This document shows positions 22,896 to 54,018 of a stretch of DNA of 64,000 bases, one piece after another (position 1 is the stretch's first letter; each line of letters opens with the position of its first letter). Both the position numbers and the translations under genes were made by a program. The stretch is taken from positions 3,590 through 67,589 of the forward strand of contig DAOULX010000042.1 of the NCBI GenBank assembly GCA_034414775.1. The letters are read 5' to 3'. The stretch comes from Dehalococcoidales bacterium (GTDB taxonomy: Bacteria; Chloroflexota; Dehalococcoidia; Dehalococcoidales; RBG-16-60-22). Below the pieces are notes generated by a model. The model was not told where the DNA came from. It saw only the letters and a program-made list of their open reading frames with translations, and ran no database searches.

Positions 22896-25800
22896 TTGAA
22901 TATGACAAACCCGGAGGTTGACAAAGATATGGCGTTAACCGGCAAGGTAATAATCGATACAGGGGAAATCGATGCGGTGATTCTTGATATGGATGGTGTC
23001 ATCACCCAGACCGCTGACATCCATGCCGCTGCCTGGAAAGAGCTTTTCGACGAGTACCTGAAAACCCGGGCGGACCGTTCCGGGGAGAAGTACCGGCCGT
23101 TCGAAATCGATCCCGATTATTTCCAGTACGTTGACGGGAAACCCCGTGATGACGGCGTGAAAAGCTTCCTGGAATCCCGCGGCATGTCTATCCCGCTGGG
23201 GGGAAAAGCTGATTCTGAAGACCAGGAGACTGTCCGGGGGTTGGGTAGCCGAAAAAACCGGTATTTTCTCGAGCAACTGAGGCAGGAGGGAGCCACTGCT
23301 TTCCAGTCTTCGGTGGATTTTGTAAAAGAGCTCAAAGCTCTCGGCATTTACGTGGCGGTAATATCGGCCAGCCGGAACGCCGAGGAGGTATTACGGTCTG
23401 CCGGGGTACTCGACCTGTTTGACGTCAAGGTTGACGGCGTTGACGCCGGTGAACTCAGGTTAAAGGGTAAGCCCAATCCGGCTATATTCCTGGAGGCCGC
23501 CAGGCGGCTGAATGTCCGGCCGGACCGGGCGGCCGTGGTCGAAGATGCCATAGCCGGTGTCCAGGCTGGCCGAAGGGGTAACTTCAAGCTTGTCATTGGA
23601 GTCGACCGTACCGGGCAGGAGGAAAACCTCCGGGAAAATGGCGCCGATGTAGTCGTGGCGGACCTGTCCTGGCTTGGTATCAAACAACCGACCCGCCCGA
23701 AGTCATTCGGCCGCCCGCTGAACAGCCTTCCATCTGCCCTGGAACGGAGAGAAGAAATTTTCGCCCGGCTGAGTGAAAAGAGTCCCGCAATTTTCCTTGA
23801 CTTCGATGGTACGCTGGCACCAAGAGTTAAAGCCCCGGCCGAGGTGGTTCTTTCCGGGAAGACCCGGCAGGTCATCAAACACTTGGGCAGACACTATTCG
23901 GTTGCCGTTGTCAGCGGACGTGATCTGGATGACATTCGTAAACTGGTCGATATCAATGACATCGCCTACGCGGGTGGTCATGGAATAGACATTTCCGGCC
24001 CGGGTAACGCCTTCCGGAGAGAGGAACGCGGTAAAGAGTTCCTGCCGGCACTCACCCGCGCCGAGAAAGAATTACGCGGGGCACTCAAACGTATCAAGGG
24101 GATAAAGATTGAACGTAAACACTTCAGCGTTTCCGTTGATTATTGCCGGGTCAATGAGGCTGACCTGGGTACATTCAAGGAGAGGCTTGACGGGGTGGCC
24201 TCAAATAATCCAAGGTTGAAAAAGACCGCCGGTGAAATGTTGTTTGAGCTGACGCCCAAAATCGATTGGAACAAGGGCAAGGCTGTCTTAGCCCTGATGG
24301 ACGTATTATATGCGGACAGCAGTAAGATTACGCCTCTTTATATTGGCGAGGATACCGCCGATGAAAAGGCTTTCCGCGCCATGGGGGAACGGGGTATCGG
24401 CATCGCCGTTGGTAAGGGGCGCCGCCGGACCCTGGCGCATTACCGGCTGCACGATCCGGATGAGGTCAGGGAGTTTCTGGCAGGACTGGGGGCGCTGGCG
24501 GAAAAGAAGGTCTCTCGAGGCATCTGGTCGCTTGTTTTCGATGGTTTCGTTCCCGAGGAAGAAGGGTTGAGAGAGGCCCTGTGCACGCTGGGTAACGGCT
24601 ATTTCGCCACCCGTGGCGCTGCTCCCGAGTCTAAGGCAGACGCGGTTCACTATCCAGGCACCTATGTCGCGGGATGCTTTAACCGGCTGACCAGCAAGAT
24701 AGCTGGCAAGAAAATCGAGAATGAAAGCATGGTGAACCTCCCGAACTGGCTGCCGCTGTCGCTGCGTTTCAACGACGGCGCCTGGTTCGATGTTGAGAAG
24801 GTCCAGGTGCTGGAATACGAGCAGGAGCTCGACCTGAGACGGGGCGTCCTGAACCGGCGGATACGCTTTGCCGATGAGCAAGGCCGCCGGACACGCCTGC
24901 TGCAACGCCGTTTTGTCAGCATGGCCGATCCTCATCTGGCAGGGATAGAGACCACCATCGTCGCGGAAAACTGGTCGGGGCAGTTATCGGTCAGATCGGC
25001 GCTTGACGGGACGGTAACCAACGACGGCGTGGCCCGCTACCGGCAACTGGATTGTCAGCATCTAGTACCGCTGGAATGCTCCCGCATCAATAACGAGACG
25101 ATATTACTGCAAGTGGAGACATATCATTCGCACATCCGGATTGCCGAAGCGGCACGAACGAGATTGTTCCTTGACGCCACCCAGCTCACTCTGGAACCCG
25201 CGACTATAGAAGACAAGGGCTTTATCGCCCAGGAGTTCAGCATCCCTGTAAAGACGGGGGGGCAGATAAGCGTTGAAAAGATAATATCTTTATATACGTC
25301 TCGGGATTCGGCTATTTCGGAGAGTGGTGAAGCCGCCCGGGAATCCGTGGCACGTGCCCCGGGCTTTGAGGGGCTTCTGGAACGCCACGTGATGAGCTGG
25401 GCTAACCTCTGGAACCGGAGCCGTATCGCCATCGAAAACGGCGAGCGTGTGGCCATGATCCTGCACCTGCATATCTTTCACTTATTGCAGACGGTTTCGC
25501 CCAATAGCATCGGTCTTGACGTGGGTGTACCGCCGAGGGGCCTCCACGGCGAGGCTTATCGCGGCCATATCTTCTGGGATGAGCTGTTTATATTTCCATT
25601 TTTAAACCTGAGCATTCCGGATATCACCCGCTCGCTGCTGTTGTACCGTTACCGGCGCCTGCCGGAAGCACGCTGGGCGGCCGCCCGGGCCGGGTTCCGG
25701 GGGGCGTTGTACCCGTGGCAGAGCGGCAGCGACGGACGGGAGGAGAGCCAGACACTCCATCTGAATCCCCGCTCGGGGCGATGGCTACCCGACAACTCAC

Positions 25801-26942
25801 ACCTGCAAAGGCATATCAATATCGCTATCGCCTATAATATCTGGCTTTACTACCAGGTGACCGGCGATGTCGATTTTCTCTCTTACTATGGAGTGGAGAT
25901 GCTCGTCGAAATCGGGCGGTTCTTCGCCAGCATCGCCACATACAATCGCACGCTGGACCGTTACGAGATCCGCCGGGTCATGGGTCCTGACGAATACCAC
26001 GATTCTTATCCGAACGCCAGCGAACCCGGCATCGACAATAACGCCTATACCAATGTAATGACGGTCTGGCTGCTCTGCCGGATCCTGGAAGCACTTGATA
26101 TAATCCCCCCGGATAGGAAGGAGTCACTCCAGGATAAACTGGATCTTAGACGCCAGGAGCTGGAGCATTGGGATGACATCAGCCGTAAAATGCGGATCGT
26201 CTTCCATGACGGCGGTATCATAAGCCAGTTTGAGGGCTATGATGCTCTTGAGGAGTTCGATTGGAAAGGCTACGAAAAGAAGTACGGTAAAATCGAGCGC
26301 CTCGACCGTATCCTCGAGGCGGAAGACGATACTCCCAACCGGTACAAAGTCTCTAAGCAGGCCGATGTGCTAATGTTGTTTTACCTGCTTTCATCCGATG
26401 AACTGCGGGAGCTGTTCGGCCGGCTTAACTATCCCTTTGAATATGAGACCATTCCCAGGAACATCGATTATTACCTTCATCGTACTTCCCATGGCTCTAC
26501 TTTGAGCCGATTGGTGCATGCCTGGGTACTGGCCCGCTCCAAACGTGAACTTTCCTGGCACCTTTTCAAGGAGGCCCTGGAGAGCGATGTTTCCGATATT
26601 CAGGGCGGTACGACGATGGAGGGTATTCATCTCGGTGCCATGGCGGGGACGGTAGACCTGGTGCAGCGCTGTTTCACCGGGATCGAAACCCGCCGGGACA
26701 AGCTGCAGTTAAACCCGGTGCTACCAAACGAGCTCAAAGACATCCAGTTCGATATTGTGTTCCGTCGGCAGCATCTCAACCTTCAATTTACCCATAACCG
26801 GCTGATTATCAAGGGACAGCCGGGTGAAGTGTCACCGGTCAGGATTGGCTTCGGAAACCTGGAAACCGATCTCAAACCTGGTGAGACCATGGAATTCAAG
26901 CTTCCGGATCCCTTGGCGAACCCTGATGATCTTACCAGGTAG
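22896..26942 (+). CDS. Tri-domain fusion: beta-phosphoglucomutase-like HAD + trehalose-phosphatase-like HAD + GH65 glycoside phosphorylase
   Basis: Domain 1 has DAVILDMDGVIT...KGKPNP...VEDAIAGVQAG. Domain 2 has AIFLDFDGTLAP...VSGRD...GEDTADE. The C-terminal roughly 780 aa have a GH65 pattern (HIFWDELFIFPF, GPDEYH, QADVLML). The architecture is that of mycobacterial OtsB1-like proteins. Confidence 0.85.
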   Translation: MNMTNPEVDKDMALTGKVIIDTGEIDAVILDMDGVITQTADIHAAAWKELFDEYLKTRADRSGEKYRPFEIDPDYFQYVDGKPRDDGVKSFLESRGMSIPLGGKADSEDQETVRGLGSRKNRYFLEQLRQEGATAFQSSVDFVKELKALGIYVAVISASRNAEEVLRSAGVLDLFDVKVDGVDAGELRLKGKPNPAIFLEAARRLNVRPDRAAVVEDAIAGVQAGRRGNFKLVIGVDRTGQEENLRENGADVVVADLSWLGIKQPTRPKSFGRPLNSLPSALERREEIFARLSEKSPAIFLDFDGTLAPRVKAPAEVVLSGKTRQVIKHLGRHYSVAVVSGRDLDDIRKLVDINDIAYAGGHGIDISGPGNAFRREERGKEFLPALTRAEKELRGALKRIKGIKIERKHFSVSVDYCRVNEADLGTFKERLDGVASNNPRLKKTAGEMLFELTPKIDWNKGKAVLALMDVLYADSSKITPLYIGEDTADEKAFRAMGERGIGIAVGKGRRRTLAHYRLHDPDEVREFLAGLGALAEKKVSRGIWSLVFDGFVPEEEGLREALCTLGNGYFATRGAAPESKADAVHYPGTYVAGCFNRLTSKIAGKKIENESMVNLPNWLPLSLRFNDGAWFDVEKVQVLEYEQELDLRRGVLNRRIRFADEQGRRTRLLQRRFVSMADPHLAGIETTIVAENWSGQLSVRSALDGTVTNDGVARYRQLDCQHLVPLECSRINNETILLQVETYHSHIRIAEAARTRLFLDATQLTLEPATIEDKGFIAQEFSIPVKTGGQISVEKIISLYTSRDSAISESGEAARESVARAPGFEGLLERHVMSWANLWNRSRIAIENGERVAMILHLHIFHLLQTVSPNSIGLDVGVPPRGLHGEAYRGHIFWDELFIFPFLNLSIPDITRSLLLYRYRRLPEARWAAARAGFRGALYPWQSGSDGREESQTLHLNPRSGRWLPDNSHLQRHINIAIAYNIWLYYQVTGDVDFLSYYGVEMLVEIGRFFASIATYNRTLDRYEIRRVMGPDEYHDSYPNASEPGIDNNAYTNVMTVWLLCRILEALDIIPPDRKESLQDKLDLRRQELEHWDDISRKMRIVFHDGGIISQFEGYDALEEFDWKGYEKKYGKIERLDRILEAEDDTPNRYKVSKQADVLMLFYLLSSDELRELFGRLNYPFEYETIPRNIDYYLHRTSHGSTLSRLVHAWVLARSKRELSWHLFKEALESDVSDIQGGTTMEGIHLGAMAGTVDLVQRCFTGIETRRDKLQLNPVLPNELKDIQFDIVFRRQHLNLQFTHNRLIIKGQPGEVSPVRIGFGNLETDLKPGETMEFKLPDPLANPDDLTR

Positions 26943-35525: not shown

Positions 35526-37172
35526 ATGTCATCTCAGGTGTTCTATCGCAAGTGGCGCCCCCAGCTTCTCGCCGAGGTGGTCGGCCAGGAGCATGTCACA
35601 CGGACGCTGCTCAATGCCCTGGCCAAAGGGCGCATCTCGCACGCTTACCTCTTCTGTGGCCCGCGCGGCACAGGCAAGACCAGCACGGCGCGCAATCTGG
35701 CCAAGGCGGTCAACTGCCTGGCGGACGGTAAAGGTGAGCCATGTAATGAATGCGATATATGCCGGTCTATCATCGAGGGGCGGGCCATGGATGTCATCGA
35801 GGTGGATGCCGCCAGCAACACCGGCGTCGACGATATCCGCAGCCTGAGGGAGAAGGTGAACTACGCCCCGAACCAGGCCCGCTACAAGGTCTATATCATC
35901 GACGAAGTCCATATGCTGAGTACCAGCGCCTCCAACGCCCTGCTCAAGACGCTGGAAGAGCCACCGCCCCATGTCATCTTCATCCTGGCCACCACCGAGA
36001 CCCACAAGATACTCCCGACCATCCTGTCACGGTGTCAGCGTTTCGATTTCCACCGCCTGGCCCAGTCCAATGTGGTGGACAAGCTGGTCCGGATATGCGA
36101 GAAAGAGGGTATCAGCACCGACCCGGAGTCACTGCGGCTGATCGCCCGGGCGGCCACCGGCAGCCTGCGGGATGCGGAAAATCTCCTTCAGCAGTTGACA
36201 ACCGGCTACGGGAACGAGATCACCCTGACGCAGGTGCAGACCCTCCTCGGTATGGCCGATAACGAGCGCAGTCGCGAGCTGGTGAGGCATATCGTCAACG
36301 GAGACGTCGCCGCCGGCGTGGCCACGATCAATAACGTCAACAACGACGGCCTCGACCTGCGCCAGTTCAATCGGGAGGTTGTCGACTACCTGCGCTTGAT
36401 GCTGCTGGTCAAGACCGGCTCCGGTGATTCCATCGAGCTTACGCCGGAAGACCTCAGCGAGCTTAAAGAGCTGGCCTCCCGGGTGCCTTTGTCGCGTGTA
36501 TTAGGGGCCGTCAGGAGCTTCGGGCAGCTTGACCTCAGCCTGGATAACTACTCTACTCTGCCGCTGGAGCTGGCGATGGTCGAATGCACCCTCTCTACAT
36601 CCGAAGAATCGGTGAAGACAAGCCCTCCGGTTGTTGAAGAGAACACTGAACCTGTTCGACATTCCAGACATCATCCGGCTATATCCGAGGATTCGCAGCG
36701 GGTAACTCCGCCTCCCGTCGAGCCAGCCGCTCGCGAAGAGGCGAAGAATATTCCTGAAACGGAGTCTCGCGTGACCGACACAGCACCGGAGGTGAAACCT
36801 CCGCCTTCAACCACGCCAGAAGCAGAAGCCGAACCCGCCGCCGGCGAAATAATCGGGCAGTTACAAGTCCATTGGACCAAAATCATCAATGAAGCCCCGG
36901 AGAACCTCAGCCGCACCCCGGCGGCCGCTCTGCTCAGGAGCGCCCGGCCGATATCTATCGAGGACAACACAGTGGTGGTTTCCTTTAAATTTCCGTTCCA
37001 CAAAGAAAAGATGGAGGCTGTTGAGAATCAGAAAACGGCCGATAAGATCGTAAGTTGTTTTTTGGGGCGTTCCTGCCGGGTACGCTGTGTCTACGAACAC
37101 GAGAATAACCACCTGGTCAAAGCGGCGCTGCGCATGGGCGCCCAGGTTATCGATAACGGGGAGGGAAAATGA
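35526..37172 (+). CDS. dnaX: DNA polymerase III subunit gamma/tau
   Basis: A Walker A motif GPRGTGKTS, a zinc module CNECDICRS, a DExx box IIDEVHML and an SRC motif are present. Confidence 0.9.
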   Translation: MSSQVFYRKWRPQLLAEVVGQEHVTRTLLNALAKGRISHAYLFCGPRGTGKTSTARNLAKAVNCLADGKGEPCNECDICRSIIEGRAMDVIEVDAASNTGVDDIRSLREKVNYAPNQARYKVYIIDEVHMLSTSASNALLKTLEEPPPHVIFILATTETHKILPTILSRCQRFDFHRLAQSNVVDKLVRICEKEGISTDPESLRLIARAATGSLRDAENLLQQLTTGYGNEITLTQVQTLLGMADNERSRELVRHIVNGDVAAGVATINNVNNDGLDLRQFNREVVDYLRLMLLVKTGSGDSIELTPEDLSELKELASRVPLSRVLGAVRSFGQLDLSLDNYSTLPLELAMVECTLSTSEESVKTSPPVVEENTEPVRHSRHHPAISEDSQRVTPPPVEPAAREEAKNIPETESRVTDTAPEVKPPPSTTPEAEAEPAAGEIIGQLQVHWTKIINEAPENLSRTPAAALLRSARPISIEDNTVVVSFKFPFHKEKMEAVENQKTADKIVSCFLGRSCRVRCVYEHENNHLVKAALRMGAQVIDNGEGK

Positions 37173-37474
37173 ACAAACACATGATGCAGCAGGCCCAGAA
37201 GCTCCAGGCGCAGCTTCTCAAAGCCCAGGAAGATCTGGCCAGCCTGACCGTAGAGGCCAGTTCCGGCGGCGGCGCCGTGACAGTCGTAATGAGCGGCCAG
37301 CAAAAAATTATATCGGTGAAAATATCTCCGGAGGTGGTCGATCCAGCGGATGTCGAGATGCTCGAGGACATGGTATTGAGCGCCGTTAGCGAGGCCCTGG
37401 CCAAGTCCCAGGAGGCGGCCACCAAGATGATGGGCGGACTGACGGGTGGATTGAAGATACCCGGGTTGATGTAG
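37169..37474 (+). CDS. ybaB: Nucleoid-associated protein YbaB/EbfC
   Basis: 101 aa with the family pattern ([26 protein letters not shown]) in the canonical dnaX-ybaB-recR context. Confidence 0.9.
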
Positions 37475-37481
37475 GATTACT

Positions 37482-38093
37482 ATGAACCAGGAAACCACCC
37501 CCGCGACCGACGCTATCGGCCGACTGGTACAAGAGTTCAGCCGGCTGCCGGGCATCGGCCCCAAGAGCGCCCAGCGCATCGCCTTTTACCTGATGCGCTC
37601 CCCGGAGGAGCAGTCCCGCGAACTTGCCGAGGCCTTGCTGGGGTTGAAACAGAAGATCACCCTGTGCTCAGCGTGCTGCAACGTCACGGAAGTTGATCCC
37701 TGTCCCATCTGTCGCAACCCGCAGCGGGAGACCGGCCAGCTATGCATCGTGGAGCAGCCCCAGGATATCCTGGCCCTTGAGCACACCGGCGCCTACAAGG
37801 GGCTATACCACGTCCTCCACGGAGCCATTTCCCCCGGCGAGGGGGTGGGGGCGGGCGATATACGGATCAAGGAGCTGCTCGACCGGCTGCGGAACAACAC
37901 CATCAGCGAAGTCATCCTGGCGACCAATACCAATCTTGAAGGCGAGCAGACGGCGATGTACCTGGGCCGGGTCATCGCCCCGCTGGGCATCAAAGTGACC
38001 CGCTTAGCCCGCGGCCTGCCCTTCGGCACCGAGCTGGAATACGCCGACGATGTCACCCTTACCCGCGCCCTGGAAGGCCGGTCTGAGTTTTAA
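37482..38093 (+). CDS. recR: Recombination protein RecR
   Basis: An HhH motif, a zinc finger [16 protein letters not shown] and a Toprim domain are present. Confidence 0.95.
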
Positions 38094-38123
38094 ATACATC
38101 TGTATCAAAAACCTGAGGTATAT

Positions 38124-38702
38124 ATGTCATTGTTACCAGACTTTGGTATTGGAGTTTGGAACGTCTGGTTGTTTATGATTATTTATCCTCTCCAATGGTT
38201 GGCGGTCGTCGTATTCCCTAAAGGAATTGGTGAAAGAGCCAGTCATGCCCCGGAAATCATCCGGGACCGCCGGGACAAAATCATGGCTATACTCACCCAG
38301 GGACTCTGGGTCGGCGCTACGCTCTACTCCATATTCGTGCCGCTGCGAACGGGCGAGCCCTGGTTGTGGGTGGGGCTGGCGCTGTTCGCCGCCGGTCTGG
38401 TGGTGTTAATTCTAGCGACAGTAGCCGTATCCAGCACGCCTCAAGGAATGCCCTTTTCGACCGGTATCTACCGCTTTTCACGCCACCCCATGTACCTTTC
38501 CATGTTCCTTGTCTATGCGGCGGTCAGTGTCGCTGCCGCTTCCTGGCTGTTTTTCGTTATCACCATTGCCACCTTCTTTCTCCAGCAGTACCAGGCAAGG
38601 AAAGAAGAAGCCCAATGCTGTGATATATTCGGCCCGGCCTATCGGGAGTATATGGGCAGGACGCCCATGTGGATAGGTGTACCGAAGCTACAGCGACAAT
38701 AG
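38124..38702 (+). CDS. Membrane methyltransferase, ICMT/PEMT-like family
   Basis: Polytopic membrane protein with YRFSRHPMYLSMFLVY, the motif typical of isoprenylcysteine carboxyl methyltransferase-like enzymes. Confidence 0.7.
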   Translation: MSLLPDFGIGVWNVWLFMIIYPLQWLAVVVFPKGIGERASHAPEIIRDRRDKIMAILTQGLWVGATLYSIFVPLRTGEPWLWVGLALFAAGLVVLILATVAVSSTPQGMPFSTGIYRFSRHPMYLSMFLVYAAVSVAAASWLFFVITIATFFLQQYQARKEEAQCCDIFGPAYREYMGRTPMWIGVPKLQRQ

Positions 38703-38793: not shown

Positions 38794-39969
38794 TTACAAT
38801 AGTGAGGGGATGTCTTTGGAGACGTCATCCAGCGCCTTGAGCTTGTCCTCCGTCTCCTCCTGGCGTTTCTTGAACTCGGGGATAAGGTCGGTCGAGCGGA
38901 GATAGTAGTCGCGTACTTTCTCAACGTCGCTGAGCTCGGAGAGAAGTACGGTAACATCTACCAGGCCCCTTTCCCTGGGGTAGTCACCGTTGCGGATGAT
39001 GGCCTCCGGCGCGATGTCCCTCATATAATCGCCGATCTCTTTGACCATGTCCATGTTCATTTCCTTGGCCGGGCCGGACACCAGGTATAGCGCCCGGCGC
39101 GAATCGGCGGGATTGCATTTCAGGGAAAGCTCGCTGATGGCCTCATCCATAGCCTGGATGCCCTTCTGGATCTCGGTGCCCTTCTTGCGGAAATCGCTCT
39201 TCCACTCGGTCGGCCACTTGAACAGGGGAGCCTGGGTCTTACCGTAGCCGATGACTGTCCAGCCGACCACGGTCTGGATAATGTCCCCGGCGTCGAGCAG
39301 CTTGGCACCGATGAACTTGGACTTCTTTTCCTCGCCGGCGCAGAGCATATTATAGAACGGCTCGGCAATCATGCCATTTATTTTGGATAGATTGGTCTGG
39401 ATGGAAGAGTCCTTTCTTACGTAGCGCTGGTTATCAACGAGGAAGACGGCATCGGCGACCGAGTAGCAGGACTTGAGGCAGGTGGCCACGTTGAAGACGG
39501 TCCTTTCCTCGGTAGTCTCTTCGTGCTCGAAAGGCAAGACAATCAGGTTCCAAATCGGTTTATCGATGTAGCGTTCCTTCAGGTGCTGCGAGACGATGGA
39601 GATAGCGCCGGATCCGGTGCCTCCTGCCGAACCGGCGATAAGGAGGAAGGCGTCCGTTTCGAAGAAGTGCTTGGTTGTCCTGATCGCGTCTACGATTTTA
39701 TCGGAATCTTCCTTGGCTATCTCGGCACCGAGCTCGTTGATTTTCCCGACGCCGTGGCCGCCGGTCTTGCGGCTACCGATAAGGATCCGATGGCGGTGGT
39801 CGTTACCTATGCTGGACAGGCCGCTCAGATCAGCGGCATCAGTATTGACAGCGAAACAGCCTGTGACGATGGTCATACGACGGCGGCTACGGGCTTTGGA
39901 ATTAAGCCGAGCAAATTCATCGGCAATTCTGCCACCGCACTGCCCCAAGCCAACAACGACTAATTTCAT
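38794..39969 (-). CDS. Tubulin/FtsZ-superfamily GTPase, CetZ-like (paralog A)
   Basis: 391 aa. The T1 loop is MKLVVVGLGQCGGRIADEF, the T4 tubulin signature is SAGGTGSGA, and a T7-like loop is KLLDAGDII. An FtsZ-type C-terminal domain pattern is present (RALYLVSGPAKEMNMDMVKEIG...VDVTVLLSEL). The tail ends KDIPSLL. The RBS is AGGGGG. Confidence 0.85.
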   Translation of the reverse strand: MKLVVVGLGQCGGRIADEFARLNSKARSRRRMTIVTGCFAVNTDAADLSGLSSIGNDHRHRILIGSRKTGGHGVGKINELGAEIAKEDSDKIVDAIRTTKHFFETDAFLLIAGSAGGTGSGAISIVSQHLKERYIDKPIWNLIVLPFEHEETTEERTVFNVATCLKSCYSVADAVFLVDNQRYVRKDSSIQTNLSKINGMIAEPFYNMLCAGEEKKSKFIGAKLLDAGDIIQTVVGWTVIGYGKTQAPLFKWPTEWKSDFRKKGTEIQKGIQAMDEAISELSLKCNPADSRRALYLVSGPAKEMNMDMVKEIGDYMRDIAPEAIIRNGDYPRERGLVDVTVLLSELSDVEKVRDYYLRSTDLIPEFKKRQEETEDKLKALDDVSKDIPSLL

Positions 39970-39997
39970 TGCAGCCCCCTAAGTTTGAGTTATGTCT

Positions 39998-40027
39998 ATT
40001 TTAAGCATAATGTCAGCGCAATGTCAA
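39998..40027 (-). promoter_or_regulatory. Sigma70-type promoter of CetZ-like gene A
   Basis: The minus strand reads TTGACA (40027-40022), an 18-nt spacer, then TAAAAT (40003-39998), about 28 nt upstream of the ATG. Confidence 0.5.
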
Positions 40028-40121
40028 TTAGCGTAAAGTAATTTAATCATATATATTTTCGTACTAATTGTATATATGACCAATTTCCTATCTTAGGTTT
40101 GTTTGGCTTGAAAAGTAGTTA

Positions 40122-40150
40122 TTGAAAAAGTGCTACCCGAATAATATAAT
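40122..40150 (+). promoter_or_regulatory. Sigma70-type promoter of the 818-aa repeat protein gene
   Basis: TTGAAA-N17-TATAAT is followed by the RBS GGGGGGTGG and the ATG at 40183. It is divergent from the CetZ-like A promoter within an AT-rich 213-bp spacer. Confidence 0.5.
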
Positions 40151-40182
40151 AAAGATTGCCATAAAAATTTGGGGGGTGGCGA

Positions 40183-42639
40183 ATGTCTCCGAATCTGAGG
40201 GAAGAAGTCGAGGGGAATATCACAGATTTCGAACGGGCGGTAGCTAAGGCTGAGGAACTCAGCCGGGCTGCCCGAGAGGCTGCCGGTAAATCGACGAAGA
40301 GCGCCATGGAAGCCGCTCAGCGGGCGGAGGAGGTGGGGCTGAAGGCCAAGAAGGCGGCGGAAGATGCCGCCAGGGCGGCCCAGGATGCGATAGCCCGGGC
40401 GGAAAAAGTCAGCCGGGAGGCCAAAGAGGCCGCTGACGCAGCGATGAAAGCCGCTAATGAAGCCATCGCCAAGTCGGAGGAGATCGCCAAGCGGCCGCAG
40501 GAAACGGCCCAATCCATGGCCAAAGCCTTCGAGGAAGCTATCGCACGGGCGGAGAAGATTGGTGGGGAAGCGATGCGGGCGGCGGAATCGGCATTGATGC
40601 TTTCCCAGGAGAGGCTCCAGCGCATCGATGAAATCAGCCGCGAAGCCAAGAAAATAGCTGATACAGCCGAAGAAACAACCCAGGAGGCTATTTCCACAGC
40701 AGAATCAGCCGTTAGCGCCGCCAGAGAGGCCACCGAAGAGTCAATCAGAGCAACCAAGGAAGCTACCAAACAGGCGGAAAAAATGGCCCGAGAGGCCAGG
40801 GAGGCCGCCGAGGCAACCACCAAGGTGTCCAAAGACGTGGTAAGCCGGACGGAGAAGACCAGTCTGTCCACCCGGGAAGCCGCCGAAGTAGCCGCCCGGG
40901 CCGCTGAGGAAGTAGCCACGCGGGCGGAGACTATCAGCAAGGTAGCCCGTGAGGTCGCCGAGGCGTCACAGCGTTCATCCCAGGAAACGATGAACCGTGT
41001 TGAAATGGTGAGTCGGGAGGCCAAACTGGCCAACGACGCTTCTCAGAAGACCGCCCAGGAAGCACTCAAGCGGGCGGAAGACGTTACCAGGGAGACTAGA
41101 GCCGCTACGGATATGGCGGCCAAGATTGCCAAGGAGGCTTCGGCAGCTTCTGTGAAGGCCTCACAGGAAGCGATGGCCAAGGCTGAACTTCTGAGCCAGG
41201 AGGCCGGTACCAAAGCTGCTGCAGCGGCTACCGAATTACAGGAGGCGGTCGCCAGGGCGGAGCAGGTATCACGGGATACCATTGATGCTACCGAAACGGC
41301 CGTGAGGAATGTGAAGGAAGCCCAAGCCCTTACGGAGAAACAGAGTCAGACCGCCAGGGAGGAGGCCGAGGCGGCGTCGCTGTCCGCCCGGGAAGCCGCC
41401 GAAATGGCCGCGCAGTCTGCCCGGGAAACCGCCGAGGCAGCCGCACAATCAGCCAAGGAGGCCGCCCGGGCAGCCGCCGAGAATGCCCGGCAGGCCGCCG
41501 AAGCTGCGGCACAGTCGGCGCGAGAGGCCGCCGATGCGTCAGCCCAACAGGCCAGCGAGGATGTGGAAGCCGCTTCACGTAGCGCCTGGGAAGCGACCGA
41601 GGCGGCAGCTGTAGCCGTGCGGGGTGCAGTCGATGCTGCTGTACAGAAGATACTAGAGGCTTCTCAGAAGACGACTGAAGAATCCGCCGCGGCTGTAACC
41701 AGAGTCGAAGAAGTTAGCGGTGAAGCCCGGCAGAAGTCGGAGGCCGCTTCTGAAGAGTTCCGCCAGGCGGTGGCGCGGATGGAAGAAATAAATAATGCAG
41801 CCGGGGTGTCCGTCGAGGAATCGGCCAGGAGCGCCCGTGAAGCGGTCGAAAAGATCGAGAAAGAGACCCAGGAAGCGGTGGCCAGGGCCGAGGAGATTGG
41901 CCAGTCCGCCAAACAGACAGCCGAGGAATCGACAAGAGTGATGCGGGAAGCCATCGACGCCGCCATTGCGACAGTGCAGGAGACGTCCCAGGTATCCCAA
42001 CAGGAAATCCAGGAGGCGATCGCCAGAGCTGAGGAAATCAGCCGGGAGACAAAGGAAGCGGCCGAGGCAGCGGTCCAGGCCGCCCGGGAAGTGACGGACG
42101 GGCTGGTCAAAGCCGCCACGGAATCCGCGGAGAGGACGGTCAAGGCGGTCAAGGAAGCCACCGAAGCAGCCGCCAAGGTTGCCCGAGAAGCTGCCGGGGT
42201 TTCCATTTCCGCTTTCAGGGAGGCGATAAGCCGGGCGGAGACAAGCGGGCAGCTGGCCAGGCAGACAGCGGACGAGTCCTTCCGCCGCTACGAAGAGTCC
42301 CTGGGTAAGGTCCGGCAAGACGAAACCGGAGAAGGCGAAAGTCAGGAAGAAACCCCGGTCAGCGCCGAAGATGCTGTTGAAGATGAGATGGCCGCTACGC
42401 TGGAGACAGATACCGAGTTTGAGACCGAGATGGGGAGCGCTCAGGATTTGGAGGAAGAAGAGCTAGGCTCGGACATAAAGCTGGAAAAGGAAGACGTTAA
42501 AAACAACGACAAGAACGGTTCAAGGGGAGAACCCAAGGGGAAAATGGAAGCTCGTCTTGAATCCCTGGCCCGGATGTATGAGGCCAAGAGAAACCAGCAA
42601 TCCGGCAAGGGAGATGAGAATAACGATAACGGCGAATGA
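40183..42639 (+). CDS. 818-aa Ala/Glu-rich all-helical repeat protein (25-residue and 11-residue repeats) with an acidic disordered tail
   Basis: A long ORF with RBS and promoter. It has no TM segment and no signal peptide. About 20 copies of a motif resembling A-[IV]-A-R-A-E-x-[IV]-S-R-E-A-K-x-A-A are present. The conserved Glu falls at residues 24, 49, 74, 99, 124, (D149), 174, 199, 224, 249, 274 and 299. A pure 11-mer block covers about residues 392-480. The C-terminal roughly 130 aa are Glu/Asp-rich. Confidence 0.85.
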   Translation: MSPNLREEVEGNITDFERAVAKAEELSRAAREAAGKSTKSAMEAAQRAEEVGLKAKKAAEDAARAAQDAIARAEKVSREAKEAADAAMKAANEAIAKSEEIAKRPQETAQSMAKAFEEAIARAEKIGGEAMRAAESALMLSQERLQRIDEISREAKKIADTAEETTQEAISTAESAVSAAREATEESIRATKEATKQAEKMAREAREAAEATTKVSKDVVSRTEKTSLSTREAAEVAARAAEEVATRAETISKVAREVAEASQRSSQETMNRVEMVSREAKLANDASQKTAQEALKRAEDVTRETRAATDMAAKIAKEASAASVKASQEAMAKAELLSQEAGTKAAAAATELQEAVARAEQVSRDTIDATETAVRNVKEAQALTEKQSQTAREEAEAASLSAREAAEMAAQSARETAEAAAQSAKEAARAAAENARQAAEAAAQSAREAADASAQQASEDVEAASRSAWEATEAAAVAVRGAVDAAVQKILEASQKTTEESAAAVTRVEEVSGEARQKSEAASEEFRQAVARMEEINNAAGVSVEESARSAREAVEKIEKETQEAVARAEEIGQSAKQTAEESTRVMREAIDAAIATVQETSQVSQQEIQEAIARAEEISRETKEAAEAAVQAAREVTDGLVKAATESAERTVKAVKEATEAAAKVAREAAGVSISAFREAISRAETSGQLARQTADESFRRYEESLGKVRQDETGEGESQEETPVSAEDAVEDEMAATLETDTEFETEMGSAQDLEEEELGSDIKLEKEDVKNNDKNGSRGEPKGKMEARLESLARMYEAKRNQQSGKGDENNDNGE

Positions 42640-42690
42640 GATTGCGGCTCGGGGGCCGGAAAACGCCGGTTAAAGGCTATCAGAAACAAT

Positions 42691-42719
42691 TTGACTTTTA
42701 AATATTAGGGCAATATACT
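42691..42719 (+). promoter_or_regulatory. Sigma70-type promoter of the 162-aa repeat protein gene
   Basis: TTGACT-N17-TATACT lies about 90 nt upstream of the GTG start at 42811. Confidence 0.5.
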
Positions 42720-42810
42720 GGGCACAAAGTAGCAACCGGACTACTGGAAACGCCCCTTTATTGTTGCCGGTGATTAATGGAGAAATCAGTTTCATATAAG
42801 GAGGTGCCAG

Positions 42811-43299
42811 GTGGCCAACCCGAAGGAACGAACCAAGAAGACTACAGCAGAACTTGAACCCGAACCATCTGTAGAAGTGGCACCGGAGGAACAGCCCAAG
42901 AGTCCTCTTGATGAGGTCATGAGCCAGGCCGAAAAGGCCTATGCCGCTTATATGGACGCCGAGCGGCAGGTGGCCCGGGCCTATCATGAGAACGAGGTGC
43001 AGGTGGCCAAGGCTTACAAGCGGGCGGAGGAGCAGGCCGCCCGGGCTTATGAAGCGGCCGTTGCGAAGGCATTGAAAGACCGTGACGAGGCGATATCGCG
43101 GGCGGCTAAAAGCCGTGAGGACATGATGAGGCGGGCTGAAGAGGCTTACCAGGCGGCCGTCGATTCAGCCTGCGCCAATAGTGAAACGGCCATTGCCGAG
43201 GCTGTTAAAGTTCGTGATGAAAGCGTTGAGAAAGCCTGGCAGGTACGCGACCAGACCATTGAACAGGCCTGGCAGATTTACTCCAAGATAGCCAGGTAG
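42811..43299 (+). CDS. 162-aa hendecad-repeat helical protein
   Basis: The start is GTG, preceded by AAGGAGG. After a Pro/Glu-rich N-terminus, an aromatic residue recurs every 11th residue (Y47, Y58, Y69, Y80, Y113, then W143 and W154). Confidence 0.75.
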   Translation: MANPKERTKKTTAELEPEPSVEVAPEEQPKSPLDEVMSQAEKAYAAYMDAERQVARAYHENEVQVAKAYKRAEEQAARAYEAAVAKALKDRDEAISRAAKSREDMMRRAEEAYQAAVDSACANSETAIAEAVKVRDESVEKAWQVRDQTIEQAWQIYSKIAR

Positions 43300-43349
43300 C
43301 AATCCGTGGCGGTCGGCCGACTGCCTGTCATTAACCGGAAACCGACTGT

Positions 43350-43390
43350 AAAAAAGTCCGGAGCAACCTGATTCAGGCGGCGCCCCGGAC
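43350..43390 (-). terminator. Hairpin with T6 tract downstream of CetZ-like gene B (A-tract on the other side)
   Basis: The minus strand reads GTCCGGGGCGCCGCCTGAATCAGGTTGCTCCGGAC followed by TTTTTT, 26 nt after the stop at 43416. It may also serve the convergent 162-aa gene. Confidence 0.55.
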
Positions 43391-43415
43391 ATTTAAACCG
43401 ATATTTAGCAGTTAC

Positions 43416-44591
43416 TTAAAGCAGCGAGGGTATATCCTTGATGGTAATATCAATCCCTCGCTGCGTACTTATTGCACCCTCCTGGCGTTTCTTCAATTCG
43501 CTCATGAGATTGATAGCCTTGGTAAAGTAGTTCCTAACCTTCTCCACATCGCTGAGTTCGGATAGTATCAGGGTTATATCCACAGCGCCTTTTTCACGGG
43601 GGTAATCGCCGCTCCTGATGATAGCTTCTGGGGACATATTCTTGATGTGGGCTCCCATTTCCTTGATAAGGTCCACGTTGATTTCCTTGGCCGGGGCGGA
43701 AACCAGGTAGAGAGCCCTCTTCGAGTCCAGCGGATTACACCTGATGGACAGGCCGCTGATGGCGGAATCGAGGGCCTGGATGCCCTTCTGTGTTTCCGTA
43801 GCTTTGTTCCTGAAATGGCGGTTGCGGCCGAAGAGGTTTTTAAACGCGGAAGTGTGGGACCGGCCATATCCCAGAGTTGTCCAGCCTACCAGTGTCTGGA
43901 TGATATCCCCCGCATCTAGTATCTTGGCGCCGATGTGGCGGGACTTTATCTCCTCGCCGGCGCAGAGCAGATCGTAGAAGGGTTGGACGATGGTAGTGTT
44001 AATGCGGTGGAGGTTGCCCATGATATGCCGGTCTTTCATGACATAGCGCTGGTTATCGATGAGGAAGACGGCATCGGCAACCAGGTAGCTGGACTTGAGG
44101 CAGGTAGCCACGTTGTAAACCGTCCTTTCCTCGGTGGCCTCTTCATGTTCAAAGGGCAGGATGATGAGGTCGTAAACAGGCTTATCGACATAGCGTTCTT
44201 TTATCTGTTGGGTCATAACGGAGATGGCGCCGGAACCGGTGCCGCCGGCTGCCCCGGCAATAAGCAGGAAGGCATCGGTTTCCTGAAAGCCCTTCGAGCT
44301 TCTGATGGTCTCGATGATTTTATCGGCGTCTTCCCGGGCGACTTCGGCGCCGAGCTCGTTGATTTTACCGACGCCATGGCCCTGGGTCTTCTTATTACCG
44401 ATGAGGATACGGGTGTCATAGCGAGGTTTTATGGTCTTCAGGCCATGGAGGTCGGCTAAATCGGTATTGACGGCGAAAGCGCCGGTGATTATATTCAGCC
44501 CGCGGGTACTACGTGCCCGACTATTAAGCCGGGCGAACTCGTCAGCAATCCTGCCACCGCATTGCCCCAGGCCGATGACGATTAGTTTCAT
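43416..44591 (-). CDS. Tubulin/FtsZ-superfamily GTPase, CetZ-like (paralog B)
   Basis: 391 aa, collinear with paralog A without gaps and roughly two-thirds identical by eye. The same motifs are present (GLGQCGGRIADEF, AAGGTGSGA, KILDAGDII), and it ends in the identical KDIPSLL. Confidence 0.85.
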   Translation of the reverse strand: MKLIVIGLGQCGGRIADEFARLNSRARSTRGLNIITGAFAVNTDLADLHGLKTIKPRYDTRILIGNKKTQGHGVGKINELGAEVAREDADKIIETIRSSKGFQETDAFLLIAGAAGGTGSGAISVMTQQIKERYVDKPVYDLIILPFEHEEATEERTVYNVATCLKSSYLVADAVFLIDNQRYVMKDRHIMGNLHRINTTIVQPFYDLLCAGEEIKSRHIGAKILDAGDIIQTLVGWTTLGYGRSHTSAFKNLFGRNRHFRNKATETQKGIQALDSAISGLSIRCNPLDSKRALYLVSAPAKEINVDLIKEMGAHIKNMSPEAIIRSGDYPREKGAVDITLILSELSDVEKVRNYFTKAINLMSELKKRQEGAISTQRGIDITIKDIPSLL

Positions 44592-50073: not shown

Positions 50074-51201
50074 TTAAGTGAAGTGACGTTGCTTGGCCGA
50101 CTCGCTCGGTGTTTCACTGGATGCCACGTGCCGTCGGTGACTGAAAAGGGGACGGCGCAGGAAGGAAGGCATATCCAGCTCGTCCTCTGTCTTCATGCCT
50201 TTCAGGATCTTGGTGAGCTCGTCATCCTCGGTCTCCTGGCCCATGCCCAGCTTGGCATGGAATCCGGTGGTGATGAGGGTAATCCTCACTTCGTTTTCCA
50301 TGGACGGGTCATTGGCGACGCCGAAGATGATGTTGGCATCCGGATCGACAGCCTGTTTGATGACATCGGCCGCCTGGTTGACCTCGAACAGAGAGAGATT
50401 GCTGCCGCCGACGACGTTAAACAGGACAGCCTTGGATCCTTCGATGGACACATCGAGGAGCGGACTGGCCAAGGCTTCCTTGGCAGCATCGGTGGCCCGG
50501 TTCTGTCCGGATCCCTTACCGATTGACATCCAGGCCGGGCCGGCATCCTTCATGATGGCCTTGACATCGGCGAAGTCGAGGTTGATCATACCGGGGGTGG
50601 TAATCACCTCGGCGATGGCCTGGACGCCGTGTCGCAGGACATCATCGGCGAGCTTAAAGGCGCTGTCGACACCGGTCTTGTGGTCACAGAGAGTCAGCAG
50701 GCGGTCGTTGGGGATGATAATCAGGGTATCGACCTTATCGATCAGGGTAGTGATGCCTTCTTCAGCCGTCTCCATGCGGTGAGCACCCTCGAAAGTGAAG
50801 GGTTTGGTAACTACGGCGATGGTCAGGGCACCGCTGTGCTTGGAAATCTCCGCTAATATCGGGATAGCACCGGTACCGGTACCGCCGCCCATACCCGCTG
50901 TGATAAACACCATGTCCGCACCGGAGAGGATCTCCTTCAGCTCATCGCGGTTTTCCTCGGCGGCCTTTTGCCCGATGCGATGGTCGCCGCCGGCGCCGAG
51001 TCCCTTGGTCAGCTTGGGGCCAAGCTGGACGCAAACCGGGGCTTCACAGATCGCCATAGCCTGGGCGTCCGTGTTCATGGCGATGAATTCTACCCCCTGG
51101 ATGTTTTCCCTGACCATACGTGTTACGGCATTGCTGCCACCACCACCCAGACCGACGACTTTTATCCTGGCTGGGTTGGTTACAAAACTTGTTCTAGCCA
51201 T
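50074..51201 (-). CDS. ftsZ: Cell division protein FtsZ (canonical)
   Basis: 375 aa with [18 protein letters not shown] and NLDFADV motifs and a C-terminal peptide LDMPSFLRR. Confidence 0.97.
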
Positions 51202-51245
51202 CTCCTCCTCCTTTCACTGATACCTTTTTATTTATTATTCTGTTT

Positions 51246-52448
51246 TCATACGAAGAACTTTTTAAGCTGGGCCGCGATGCGGTTGAATAGCCCCGGTTTC
51301 CAGTTCCTCCTACTCTGGTATTTGCTCCCCCAGAGCAGCAGACCGACACTGGTGGCGTAGGCCGGGTCACGGAGTGTGTCGGCGATACCATGGAGGTTAG
51401 CAGGGGCGCCAACCCTCACCGGGAGCTTGAGGATATCGCGCCCGAGGGCAGCCATGCCGGATAGATTGGCACTGCCACCGGTAAGCACCAGACCGGCGGG
51501 TACCAGTGCTTCGTAGTCCGAATTCGGCATTTCCAGGAGGATGAGCTTCAAGATTTCCTCGACCCTGGCCCGGATGATGTCGCAGAGGTCCTGATAGGAT
51601 ACGCCGTGGCCGTCTTTGGATATAGCCGGAGCCGTATCACTTTTGCTTTCATAAACAGGCATAACACTGCCGTACTTTTTCTTCATCTCTTCGGCAATCT
51701 CGAACGGCAGCCCCAGGCCGATAGCGACATCGCGGGTGAGCTGGTATCCGGCTACCGGTAGAATGGAGGTATGCCAGATGCTGCCTTCCCTGAAGACAGC
51801 AACGTCCGTGGTGCCACCACCGACATCAGCCATGATGACACCGACCTGCTTTTCGTCATCGGTGAGGATGGCCTCGCTGCTGGCCAGGGGCTCCAGGACA
51901 AGGTCTTCGATGTCTATCCCGATGCTCCGGATGCATTTGACCAGGTTCTGGATCGAGGTCACCGCCGCTGTGATAATATGGGTTTCCACGTCGAGTCGGA
52001 AGCCGTGCATGCCGACGGGATTTTTAACGCCCGTCTGACCGTCGACGGCATAGGCGCGGGGGATAACGTGAAGCAGTCTTCTATCAGTGGCGGTCTTCAC
52101 GCTCTGGGCGGAGGCCAGGACCCGTTTCAAGTCGTCCGGGCGTACGACGCGGTCGTTACGAGTGATAGCGACAACGCCGTGGTTGTTGATCGACGTAACG
52201 TGGCGGCCGGTAACGCCGACGTAGGCAGATTCCACTTTATAATTGCTGGCCTGCTCCGCCTTTTTAACCGAGTCCCTGATGGATTCCCTCGCTTCGTTGA
52301 TATTGACCACGAGCCCTTTGTGCAGCCCCCGGGAAGGAGAAACGCCCACGCCCAGGATGCGAGGGCCGCCGTCACTGACATCCGAAAGTATCGTACAAAT
52401 CTTGGTCGTGCCAACATCAACTGAAGCTACGACATTCTGTTTTTTCAT
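51246..52448 (-). CDS. ftsA: Cell division protein FtsA
   Basis: 400 aa with actin-fold motifs (VDVGTTK, DVGGGTTD). It lies immediately upstream of ftsZ and has a strong RBS, AAGGAGGG. Confidence 0.95.
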   Translation of the reverse strand: MKKQNVVASVDVGTTKICTILSDVSDGGPRILGVGVSPSRGLHKGLVVNINEARESIRDSVKKAEQASNYKVESAYVGVTGRHVTSINNHGVVAITRNDRVVRPDDLKRVLASAQSVKTATDRRLLHVIPRAYAVDGQTGVKNPVGMHGFRLDVETHIITAAVTSIQNLVKCIRSIGIDIEDLVLEPLASSEAILTDDEKQVGVIMADVGGGTTDVAVFREGSIWHTSILPVAGYQLTRDVAIGLGLPFEIAEEMKKKYGSVMPVYESKSDTAPAISKDGHGVSYQDLCDIIRARVEEILKLILLEMPNSDYEALVPAGLVLTGGSANLSGMAALGRDILKLPVRVGAPANLHGIADTLRDPAYATSVGLLLWGSKYQSRRNWKPGLFNRIAAQLKKFFV

Positions 52449-52536
52449 CTGCCCTCCTTAAATATCCGTGGTCTTTCGTACCATATTTCTTTCGGTTCTC
52501 ACATACAAGAACCTCCTTTATTGGTTTGCTTATGGT

Positions 52537-53589
52537 TCAAGCGGCCAATAATACCGTCTTGATCTTTTGTAACAGGGCTGGCCGACGCCATCCCCGATAC
52601 TCGGCGATGGTGAGGACCGGATGGTCTCGGGCGGCGTCGGGCGAAGAGTTGTTATTGATCACACGCTGCGCGGCCCTCATTTTGGCGCTGCGGCTGCGCA
52701 CGTTGAGCCCGATTTCGGCTCGGGTGGGGGTAATGACTTTCTTGTTGACCAGTTCCAGGCGTGGGGTATGGCCGCAGATACAGGCCGGCGTCCCCGGGGG
52801 GCAAATACAACCGCGGGACTCTGTCTGCATGAACTGCTTGACGATTCTGTCTTCGAGAGAGTGGTAGCTGATGACTACCAGCCGGCCAGCGTGGCCGAGG
52901 AGATCAACGGCCTGTCTCAGAGCGGCTTCCAGGTGTTCCAGTTCGTGGTTGACGGCGATGCGGAGCGCCTGGAAGGTTTTCGTGGCCGGGTGAATACGGC
53001 CGCTCCGTCCGATGGCCGTTTCAACCAGTGATGCCAGCTGGCGAGTTGTGGAAACGGGACGATTCTCCACGATAATCCGGGCAATTCTGCGACTGCGCTT
53101 TTCCTCGCCGTAGGTCTTGATGATATGGGCCAGCCGGGCTTCCGGTGTCGTGTTGACGATATCGGCGGCGGTGGTCTTTTGGGTGGGATTAAATCTCATG
53201 TCCAACGGGGCATCGGTCTGGAAGCTGAAACCGCGCCGGCTTCCGTTGAGCTGAAGGGAGGACAGTCCCAGATCGAAAAGGATGCCGTGTACGGGGAAAA
53301 AGTCATATTTAATACAAATGGATTGCAGATTGGCGAAATTATCATTGACCAGGAGGGCGGACTCCTTATAGCGCTGGAGTCTTTTCTTCGCCGCCTCGAT
53401 AGCGGCGGGGTCGGCGTCAATACCCAGAAGCTGACCCCCCGGAGAGCTGTGGTCGAGGATAGCCGCGGCGTGCCCGCCGGCACCGACGGTGCAATCGATA
53501 TAGCGGCCGCCAGGCTGTACAGCGAGGGCGCGAAGCGCCTCAGAGAGGAGGACCGGGGTGTGGGTGTGGGTTGATCTCTGGTTCACCAT
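52537..53589 (-). CDS. rsmH: 16S rRNA (cytosine1402-N4)-methyltransferase RsmH
   Basis: [15 protein letters not shown] and FDLGLSS motifs are present. The protein is about 40 aa longer at the C-terminus than typical RsmH. Confidence 0.92.
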
Positions 53590-53592
53590 TAA

Positions 53593-54018
53593 TTATTTGT
53601 TCTCCAGGCTTTCGATAATCTGCCAGGCCTGTTCCTGGCTGTCCATCTTCTCTTCTTCCCAGACTTCCTTGTTCCAAATCTCAAGGTAAGTGTTAGCTCC
53701 GGCGATAACCACGTCGTCGACGATTTCGGCGTGTTCGCGGAGAGGAGCGGGAATGGCGATGCGTCCTTGATTATCGACACGGGTACTGAAAGCGGTGGCG
53801 AAGATGGCGCGGCTCAATTTTCTCATTTTGCTGCGGGTCAGGCCGCTGCCGGTGAGTTGTTCGGCGATCTTCTTCCATTCAACCGGGGTATAGCAGGTGA
53901 TGCACTTTTCCTGACCGGGCGTCAGAACGATACCGTCTTTCAGGGCGTTCCTGAAGCGCGGCGGGACGGGTACCCGGCCCTTGTCATCTACCTTATAATC
54001 GAACTCACCGTAAAACAT
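53593..54018 (-). CDS. mraZ: Transcriptional regulator MraZ
   Basis: MFYGEFDYKVDDKGRVPVP plus a second DxxGR motif (VDNQGRIAIP). Confidence 0.92.
   Translation of the reverse strand: MFYGEFDYKVDDKGRVPVPPRFRNALKDGIVLTPGQEKCITCYTPVEWKKIAEQLTGSGLTRSKMRKLSRAIFATAFSTRVDNQGRIAIPAPLREHAEIVDDVVIAGANTYLEIWNKEVWEEEKMDSQEQAWQIIESLENK

Follow-up and report, generated by a model that had tools for sequence, protein, structure and literature searches.

KDIPSLL, the probable Dehalococcoidales form of a CetZ-family C-terminal docking motif, on two paired tubulin-like proteins

The C-terminal peptide of FtsZ is the docking site for FtsA, ZipA, SepF and other proteins, and in the plasmid tubulin TubZ and the phage tubulin PhuZ it is likewise a C-terminal tail that makes contact with an adjacent subunit, an adaptor or both. 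A comparable element has been described in CetZ1 of Haloferax volcanii, where a short conserved sequence lies at the very C-terminus with its hydrophobic residues exposed; the mutation LESLF to AESGG abolished rod development, and in the polymer model of the authors this tail seems to contact the adjacent subunit (bioRxiv 10.1101/2024.04.08.588506). CetZ-like proteins of Chloroflexota-Dehalococcoidia were already mentioned in a 2023 survey, which also argued that the C-terminal regions of CetZ descend from archaeal FtsZ (PMC9871819), but several recent papers still describe CetZ as archaea-specific. The current study concerns two CetZ-like proteins, CetZ-A and CetZ-B, which share the C-terminal tail KDIPSLL and are encoded on a 64,000-nucleotide stretch of DNA (the window) from a Dehalococcoidales bacterium (GCA_034414775.1, contig DAOULX010000042.1, positions 3,590 to 67,589 of the forward strand). 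The tail is probably the Dehalococcoidales form of a C-terminal docking motif of the CetZ family, and the motif is inherited with that family. What is new is a CetZ tail variant in a bacterial lineage, carried by paired paralogues within a four-gene module; no description of either the Dehalococcoidales tail or the module was found in the literature searched.

CetZ-A (38794–39969) and CetZ-B (43416–44591) are both encoded on the minus strand and both 391 residues long, and can be aligned over their entire length at 66% identity with zero gaps. Each carries a Tubulin/FtsZ GTPase domain (PF00091; 110.3 bits in A, 111.6 bits in B) and a CetZ-type C-terminal domain (PF21011, CetZ_C; 58.3 and 64.3 bits, respectively, relative to a Pfam cut-off of 21.6 bits), and the GGTGSG-type signature is invariant among the aligned homologues as AGGTGSG at residues 115–121. 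The closest solved structure by sequence is H. volcanii CetZ1 (4B46, E = 1e-44), followed by CetZ2 and the Methanosaeta CetZ, while all FtsZ structures are far behind (best E = 9e-12). A search with the AlphaFold2 model of CetZ-B (mean predicted local distance difference test score, pLDDT, 90.7) gave a matching picture, as the top of the fold list was occupied by the three solved CetZ structures, CetZ1, CetZ2 and M. thermophila CetZ (4B46, 4B45 and both chains of 3ZID), with a template modelling score of 0.92 to both CetZ1 and CetZ2. In contrast, the two proteins reach only 58 bits with the FtsZ equivalog model TIGR00065, the cut-off of which is 295 bits. CetZ-A and CetZ-B belong to the CetZ family, not to FtsZ. 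Neither resembles an inactive partner, because both keep the acidic residues, D226 and D229, that align with the catalytic residue of the inter-subunit T7 loop. The host, however, is not an archaeon: the close homologues are named Dehalococcoidales or Chloroflexota, and the window has a bacterial mraZ-rsmH-ftsA-ftsZ cluster.

The C-terminus of CetZ-A reads ...LDDVSKDIPSLL and that of CetZ-B ...IDITIKDIPSLL, the latter followed directly by a stop codon when nt 43416–43460 are translated from the minus strand. The codons for KDIPSLL occupy nt 43419–43439 in the gene for CetZ-B (residues 385–391; stop codon 43416–43418) and nt 38797–38817 in the gene for CetZ-A (stop codon 38794–38796), again on the minus strand, and they differ between the two genes (AAAGACATCCCCTCACTATTG vs AAGGATATACCCTCGCTGCTT). 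A sequence-only reading of the window had pointed out that both proteins end in KDIPSLL and that this resembles the FtsZ peptide; the open reading frames (ORFs) and termini are as it described them, and the likeness is real. Translation of the window in all six frames yielded 8 matches to a relaxed form of the motif, relative to 4.6 expected, and only three of them, in CetZ-A, CetZ-B and FtsZ, fall at or close to the C-terminal end of a real gene.

A scan of one genome per species recovered at least 517 stretches that encode a CetZ-like relative. The best 79 loci were analysed, nearly all of them labelled Dehalococcoidales, Dehalococcoidia or Chloroflexota, and these provided 131 orthologues from 79 species (53 of CetZ-A and 78 of CetZ-B). 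The core, DIP[ST]L[LI], is nearly invariant throughout. Orthologues of CetZ-B end in [KNH]DIPSL[LI], and those of CetZ-A in [KR][DE]IP[ST]LL, some with one additional Ser or Gln; the best 120 homologues of CetZ-B all end in [KN]DIPSLL. When the orthologues of both paralogues are aligned jointly, I387, P388 and L390 show no variation, and the mean column entropy is 0.17 bit at residues 385–391 compared with 1.28 bit at residues 355–384. By conservation the tail ranks 25th of 385 seven-residue segments, level with the GTP-binding loops. The fixed residues are encoded by 3 of 3 Ile codons, 4 of 4 Pro codons, at least 5 Ser codons and 6 of 6 Leu codons. The full range of synonymous codons is thus in use, and the target of selection is the peptide rather than a DNA or RNA element. 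The conservation of the tail is far above chance and reflects strong purifying selection at the protein level, as the sequence-only reading had supposed when it called the last seven residues selectively conserved.

The same reading held that roughly 25 residues preceding the tail had diverged between the paralogues, which is correct in part. Residues 372–384 do differ, at 12 of 13 positions, but the block KKRQE just before them (367–371) is common to CetZ-A and CetZ-B. Within each paralogue residues 372–384 are conserved, and from this pattern they are a putative paralogue-specific stalk, not an unconstrained linker; that of CetZ-B, GAISTQRGIDITI, is encoded at nt 43440–43478 (minus strand) and makes up the last part of the predicted terminal helix, to which the tail is attached. 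In the AlphaFold2 model of CetZ-B one continuous long helix spans residues 350–384, with pLDDT dropping along it from 93 to 73, and the last 10 residues have a pLDDT of 48. The tail is thus predicted to be free and unbound in the monomer, at the free end of the last helix.

The motif extends well beyond the Dehalococcoidales. When cluster representatives at 50% identity were searched, 919 relatives were returned, and 14 of the 21 best full-length representatives have a hydrophobic residue-P-x-L within the last few residues, with tails such as KDLPSLE, DIPLLL, DIPTLL, EVPSLL and GLPSLL; more distant relatives end in DIDSLL, RIDGLL, DELEPLF or IEPLF. In an alignment of 25 homologues at 24–66% identity only 9 columns are invariant, and L390 is among them; the others are nucleotide-binding glycines and a few core residues. 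A second set, of 120 archaeal CetZ proteins, came from a search seeded with a Bathyarchaeia member and includes Haloferax, Halosimplex, Methanoregula, Methanomicrobium and Syntropharchaeia. All but one or two of these end in [DE]-[LI]-[DE]-[PS]-L-[FIY], optionally followed by Glu (e.g. ELDPLF, ELESLF). The Bathyarchaeia protein itself ends in KDIPPLL, and its gene has archaeal neighbours (F420 ligase, aldehyde:ferredoxin oxidoreductase and HMG-CoA reductase); a protein from Thermococci ends in FDLPPL. Among archaea, the motif is carried by Haloarchaea, Methanomicrobia, Bathyarchaeia and Thermococci. Its family-wide form is an acidic residue (Asp or Glu), a hydrophobic residue, two variable positions, Leu and a final hydrophobic residue. 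The Dehalococcoidales form has Pro at +1, whereas in the majority of archaeal tails +1 is acidic (Asp or Glu) and +2 is Pro or Ser, and the Bathyarchaeia and Thermococci tails, with their two adjacent prolines, are intermediate between the two.

The genes for the two proteins lie close together in an arrangement that is itself conserved. Between them, on the opposite (plus) strand, are two genes for repeat proteins, here termed CC162 (162 residues, nt 42811–43299) and CC818 (818 residues, nt 40183–42639), and the order cetZB, CC162, CC818, cetZA (window nt 38794–44591) recurs in essentially every one of the 79 loci with enough sequence to cover it, the CetZ pair on one strand and the repeat-protein pair on the other. 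An orthologue of CetZ-A stands beside that of CetZ-B wherever a related locus extends far enough, and CC162 is found in about 70 of the 79, the contig ending before it in several others. Judged by this gene order, CetZ-A and CetZ-B are an obligate pair inside a putative four-gene cytoskeletal module. In related loci gap (GAPDH) usually borders the module on one side and dnaX-ybaB-recR on the other. In the window the dnaX-ybaB-recR block (nt 35526–38702, plus strand) is inverted relative to those loci, and a gene for a PEMT/ICMT-like membrane methyltransferase (nt 38124–38702) lies between recR and cetZA.

Neither repeat protein has a significant match to a Pfam or NCBIfam family. CC818 is rich in Ala and Glu and built of 11-residue repeats, with repeat lags of 11, 22, 25 and 36 residues; conservation is seen in its N-terminal third and in MEARLESLARMYEAK, a short C-terminal block. 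CC162 has lags of 11, 22, 33 and 44 residues and a Tyr or Trp every 11 residues. AlphaFold2 predicts for it a single 130-residue helix (residues 32–161, pLDDT >90) after a disordered N-terminus, and its conserved blocks are residues 32–75 and 141–160. Repeats of 11 residues of this kind occur in helices that lie on membrane surfaces and in unusual coiled coils. CC162 is a candidate partner or tether for the CetZ proteins, and CC818 a candidate partner or scaffold.

Outside this clade the gene neighbourhoods are dissimilar. At seven distant CetZ-like loci (P0140, P0157, P0126, P0276, P0135, P0203 and P0304) no common neighbour was found; the genes present there include FtsH, phage-like genes, oxidoreductases, RlmN, a membrane protein with two transmembrane segments, and transposases. 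Members of a CetZ-like subfamily with tails of the type ...LPSL or ...LPDL lie on a phage-like contig (P0157), which also has small genes of unknown function and a homologue of Acb1, and in a region rich in resolvases, TnpB and IS66 genes (P0304). This suggests that this subfamily consists of mobile-element tubulins related to CetZ. The bacterial CetZ-like protein of P0140 has the tail GLPSLLETEED; next to its gene, and beside two FtsH genes, a LAGLIDADG-type homing endonuclease ORF (L080 5267–5872, minus strand) lies inside a 3.2-kb stretch without called genes.

The window also encodes FtsZ and FtsA, the latter the proposed shared anchor. FtsZ (nt 50074–51201, minus strand) scores 412 bits with TIGR00065 (cut-off 295 bits) and, as the sequence-only reading had noted, has an FtsZ peptide near its C-terminus; the core, DMPSFL, is encoded at nt 50158–50175 (minus strand), 27 residues before the end of the protein. 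Close relatives of this FtsZ have LD[VM]P[AS]FLR[RQH] followed by 25–37 more residues, and more distant FtsZ proteins the usual D-I-P-A-F-L-R; across related FtsZ proteins the core is D-[IV]-P-[AS]-F-L. FtsA (nt 51246–52448, minus strand) matches Pfam FtsA and SHS2_FTSA, scores 382 bits with TIGR01174 (cut-off 176), and ends in the amphipathic-looking sequence GLFNRIAAQLKKFFV. A scan of unassigned ORFs in the window, as opposed to the rest of the genome, detected no SepF, ZapA, MinD or DivIVA. The 27 residues that follow the peptide in FtsZ (nt 50074–50157, minus strand) are an unusually long extension, and close relatives often end there in ...SFNSW[NT][KR]. The division cluster is reduced to mraZ-rsmH-ftsA-ftsZ (nt 50074–54018, minus strand); ftsA follows immediately on rsmH, and no ftsL, ftsI, mur or ftsW genes intervene. 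Dehalococcoidia are reported to be wall-less, and the reduced cluster is consistent with that.

A docking role would fit the published work on CetZ1 and on the tails of other tubulin-superfamily proteins. That the identical tails arose by chance, by recent gene conversion, or as a DNA or RNA element at the 3' ends of the genes, such as a terminator, is extremely improbable. Gene conversion is conceivable in principle, given that the two genes are 3.4 kb apart on one strand, but the adjacent 13 residues are stably paralogue-specific, the tail codons of CetZ-A and CetZ-B differ, all synonymous codons are used across the orthologues, and the motif is still present in homologues of as little as 24% identity; these readings were rejected on the stable stalks, the codon variation and the family-wide motif. 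A more substantial alternative is that of the sequence-only reading, namely that the tail imitates the FtsZ peptide, or is a homologue of it, and docks on FtsA (nt 51246–52448) or another FtsZ tether, so that CetZ filaments would share the membrane anchor of the divisome or compete for it. DIPSLL and the DMPSFL of the window FtsZ have in common Asp, Pro, Ser, the final Leu and the i/i+3/i+4 spacing of hydrophobic residues, the FtsZ proteins of the lineage keep D-[VM]-P-[AS]-F-L, and the window FtsA is a bona fide equivalog with an end that resembles a membrane helix. The register of the tail, hydrophobic-P-x, is that of bacterial FtsZ, while canonical archaeal CetZ tails have hydrophobic-[DE]-[PS], and some archaeal CetZ tails (RIDGLL, DIDSLF) in turn resemble the FtsZ peptide of M. 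smithii, NEDQLDDFIDGIF (...DDFIDGIF), which is bound by SepF. Archaeal CetZ tails thus resemble the archaeal FtsZ peptide and bacterial ones the bacterial peptide, so that the tails could descend from FtsZ, in line with the argument of PMC9871819, or be tuned to the adaptors of their hosts. Taken further, CetZ tails would be retained FtsZ-type adaptor peptides that track the FtsZ anchor of the host, those of Dehalococcoidales (I-P-S-L-L) having moved away from the archaeal type ([IL]-D-[PGS]-L-F) into the hydrophobic-P-x-F-L register of bacterial FtsZ. The two-paralogue cytoskeleton of Dehalococcoidales, with its repeat proteins, would then be tethered to the membrane by FtsA and share it with FtsZ or compete with FtsZ for it, a proposal that is regarded as unlikely here. 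The likeness to the FtsZ peptide does not show binding to FtsA. Tails with Pro in the same position are also present in Bathyarchaeia and Thermococci, and PMC8178401 names SepF-like proteins as the only bacterial-type FtsZ tethers of archaea. Set against the FtsZ consensus, D-[ILV]-P-x-[FWY]-[LIM] plus basic residues, the Dehalococcoidales tail agrees at D, I, P and the final L. It has Leu at +3, where the FtsZ peptide has an aromatic residue; its chain ends without the basic residues (Arg/Lys) that follow the motif in FtsZ; and it sits directly on the predicted helix 350–384 with only about 7–10 low-confidence residues, whereas the FtsZ peptide follows a long disordered linker. In the 79 related loci, moreover, ftsA and ftsZ are not syntenic with the CetZ module. 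Inspection of the tail in other homologues, which had been suggested as a check, told against the proposal, as the motif is kept across the family and is present in archaea too: because it is family-wide, archaea included, the tail need not have arisen or function as an FtsA ligand, and docking on FtsA is weakened because archaea have the motif without having FtsA. FtsA or another FtsZ tether is accordingly considered an unlikely receptor.

Among the remaining candidates, the neighbouring subunit of a CetZ-A/CetZ-B polymer is tentatively placed first, because the motif outlives the host-specific sets of partners found in archaea, bacteria and mobile elements; apart from CetZ itself, no protein is shared by all hosts that keep it. 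Several points count against this preference. The ranking of receptors is inferred, and the FtsZ peptide shows that a hub peptide with many different partners can be conserved, so wide conservation is no proof of self-docking. The contact between tail and adjacent subunit appears in the model of a preprint and in its citation of Duggin 2015, and a C-terminal fluorescent fusion of CetZ1 is reported to be largely functional, so that a free end is non-essential (bioRxiv 10.1101/2024.04.08.588506). Some homologues also have additional residues beyond the motif, which fits either reading. The tail may instead dock on CC162 or CC818, acting as filament-associated scaffolds or as tethers on the membrane surface. 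The four-gene order kept across 79 species speaks for this, as do the 11-residue repeats of both proteins, the single 130-residue helix of CC162 with an aromatic residue every 11 positions, and the conserved blocks that stand amid variable repeats in both. Gene linkage, however, indicates a shared process and not direct contact with the tail, and neither protein was seen beside CetZ-like genes outside the clade, although the tail motif long predates the clade. CC162 or CC818 is possible as the receptor but less probable than the polymer itself, and some other partner is held to be just as possible as they are.

If the tail docks on a neighbouring CetZ subunit or on another protein, it would act as a short hook, with the side chains of I387, L390 and L391 inserted into a groove on its receptor. 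By analogy with LESLF in Haloferax CetZ1, this contact would be needed for the assembly or positioning of CetZ filaments. CetZ-A and CetZ-B would then present one hook on different helical stalks, to the same kind of receptor but in a different manner, and the conserved, paralogue-specific stalks might fit a difference in hook geometry, such as would occur in a mixed polymer, although this is speculation.

CetZ proteins have been called archaea-specific shape-control tubulins, and the same tail motif is here found in a bacterial order, on paralogues that are always paired. The binding partner of the CetZ tail can thereby be sought in a further lineage, independent of the first, and the candidate receptors are few: an adjacent subunit, CC162, CC818 and FtsA. 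Should the tail bind the filament itself, the principle of tail-stabilised polymers known from TubZ and PhuZ would be extended to CetZ; should it use FtsA, a shape cytoskeleton would be linked to the divisome anchor, coupling cell shape to division in bacteria that apparently lack a cell wall. The four-gene module merits more attention than the tail itself. Two further genes of the window may be mentioned. One (nt 9567–10148, minus strand) encodes a 193-residue protein in which a class-III-type signal peptide is combined with an archaeal-flagellin domain (PF01917, E = 3e-24), and it ranks beside CetZ as another structural gene of archaeal type on this bacterial DNA; the other encodes a 1348-residue fusion of a HAD hydrolase, a trehalose-phosphatase and a glycoside hydrolase of family 65, of the trehalose/maltose phosphorylase type (nt 22896–26942, plus strand).

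In comparison with known systems, the Dehalococcoidales tail is closest to that of H. volcanii CetZ1 (...DELESLF). The proteins are of the same family (Tubulin plus CetZ_C), the tail is at the extreme C-terminus after the last helix, and the pattern is the same as in archaeal CetZ tails, that is an acidic residue, a hydrophobic residue, two variable positions, Leu and a hydrophobic residue; the archaeal tail has been shown by experiment to be required. The differences are that the host is a bacterium rather than an archaeon, that Pro is one position earlier (I-P-S-L-L vs L-D-P-L-F or L-E-S-L-F), that the final residue is Leu or Ile where the archaeal CetZ tail has Phe, that the stalk is not poly-acidic, and that one tail is shared by two obligatorily paired paralogues. 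The FtsZ peptide is likewise a short conserved C-terminal peptide of a tubulin-superfamily GTPase, with the same Asp-hydrophobic-Pro register, but its carrier is FtsZ, and CetZ-A and CetZ-B fail the FtsZ family model. TubZ and PhuZ are also divergent prokaryotic tubulins with terminal tails, and the CetZ-like relatives ending in ...LPSL or ...LPDL lie in phage-like and mobile-element contexts; the tails of TubZ and PhuZ, however, have other sequence motifs, and the genes of the window are chromosomal, lie amid housekeeping genes, and are conserved throughout the order.

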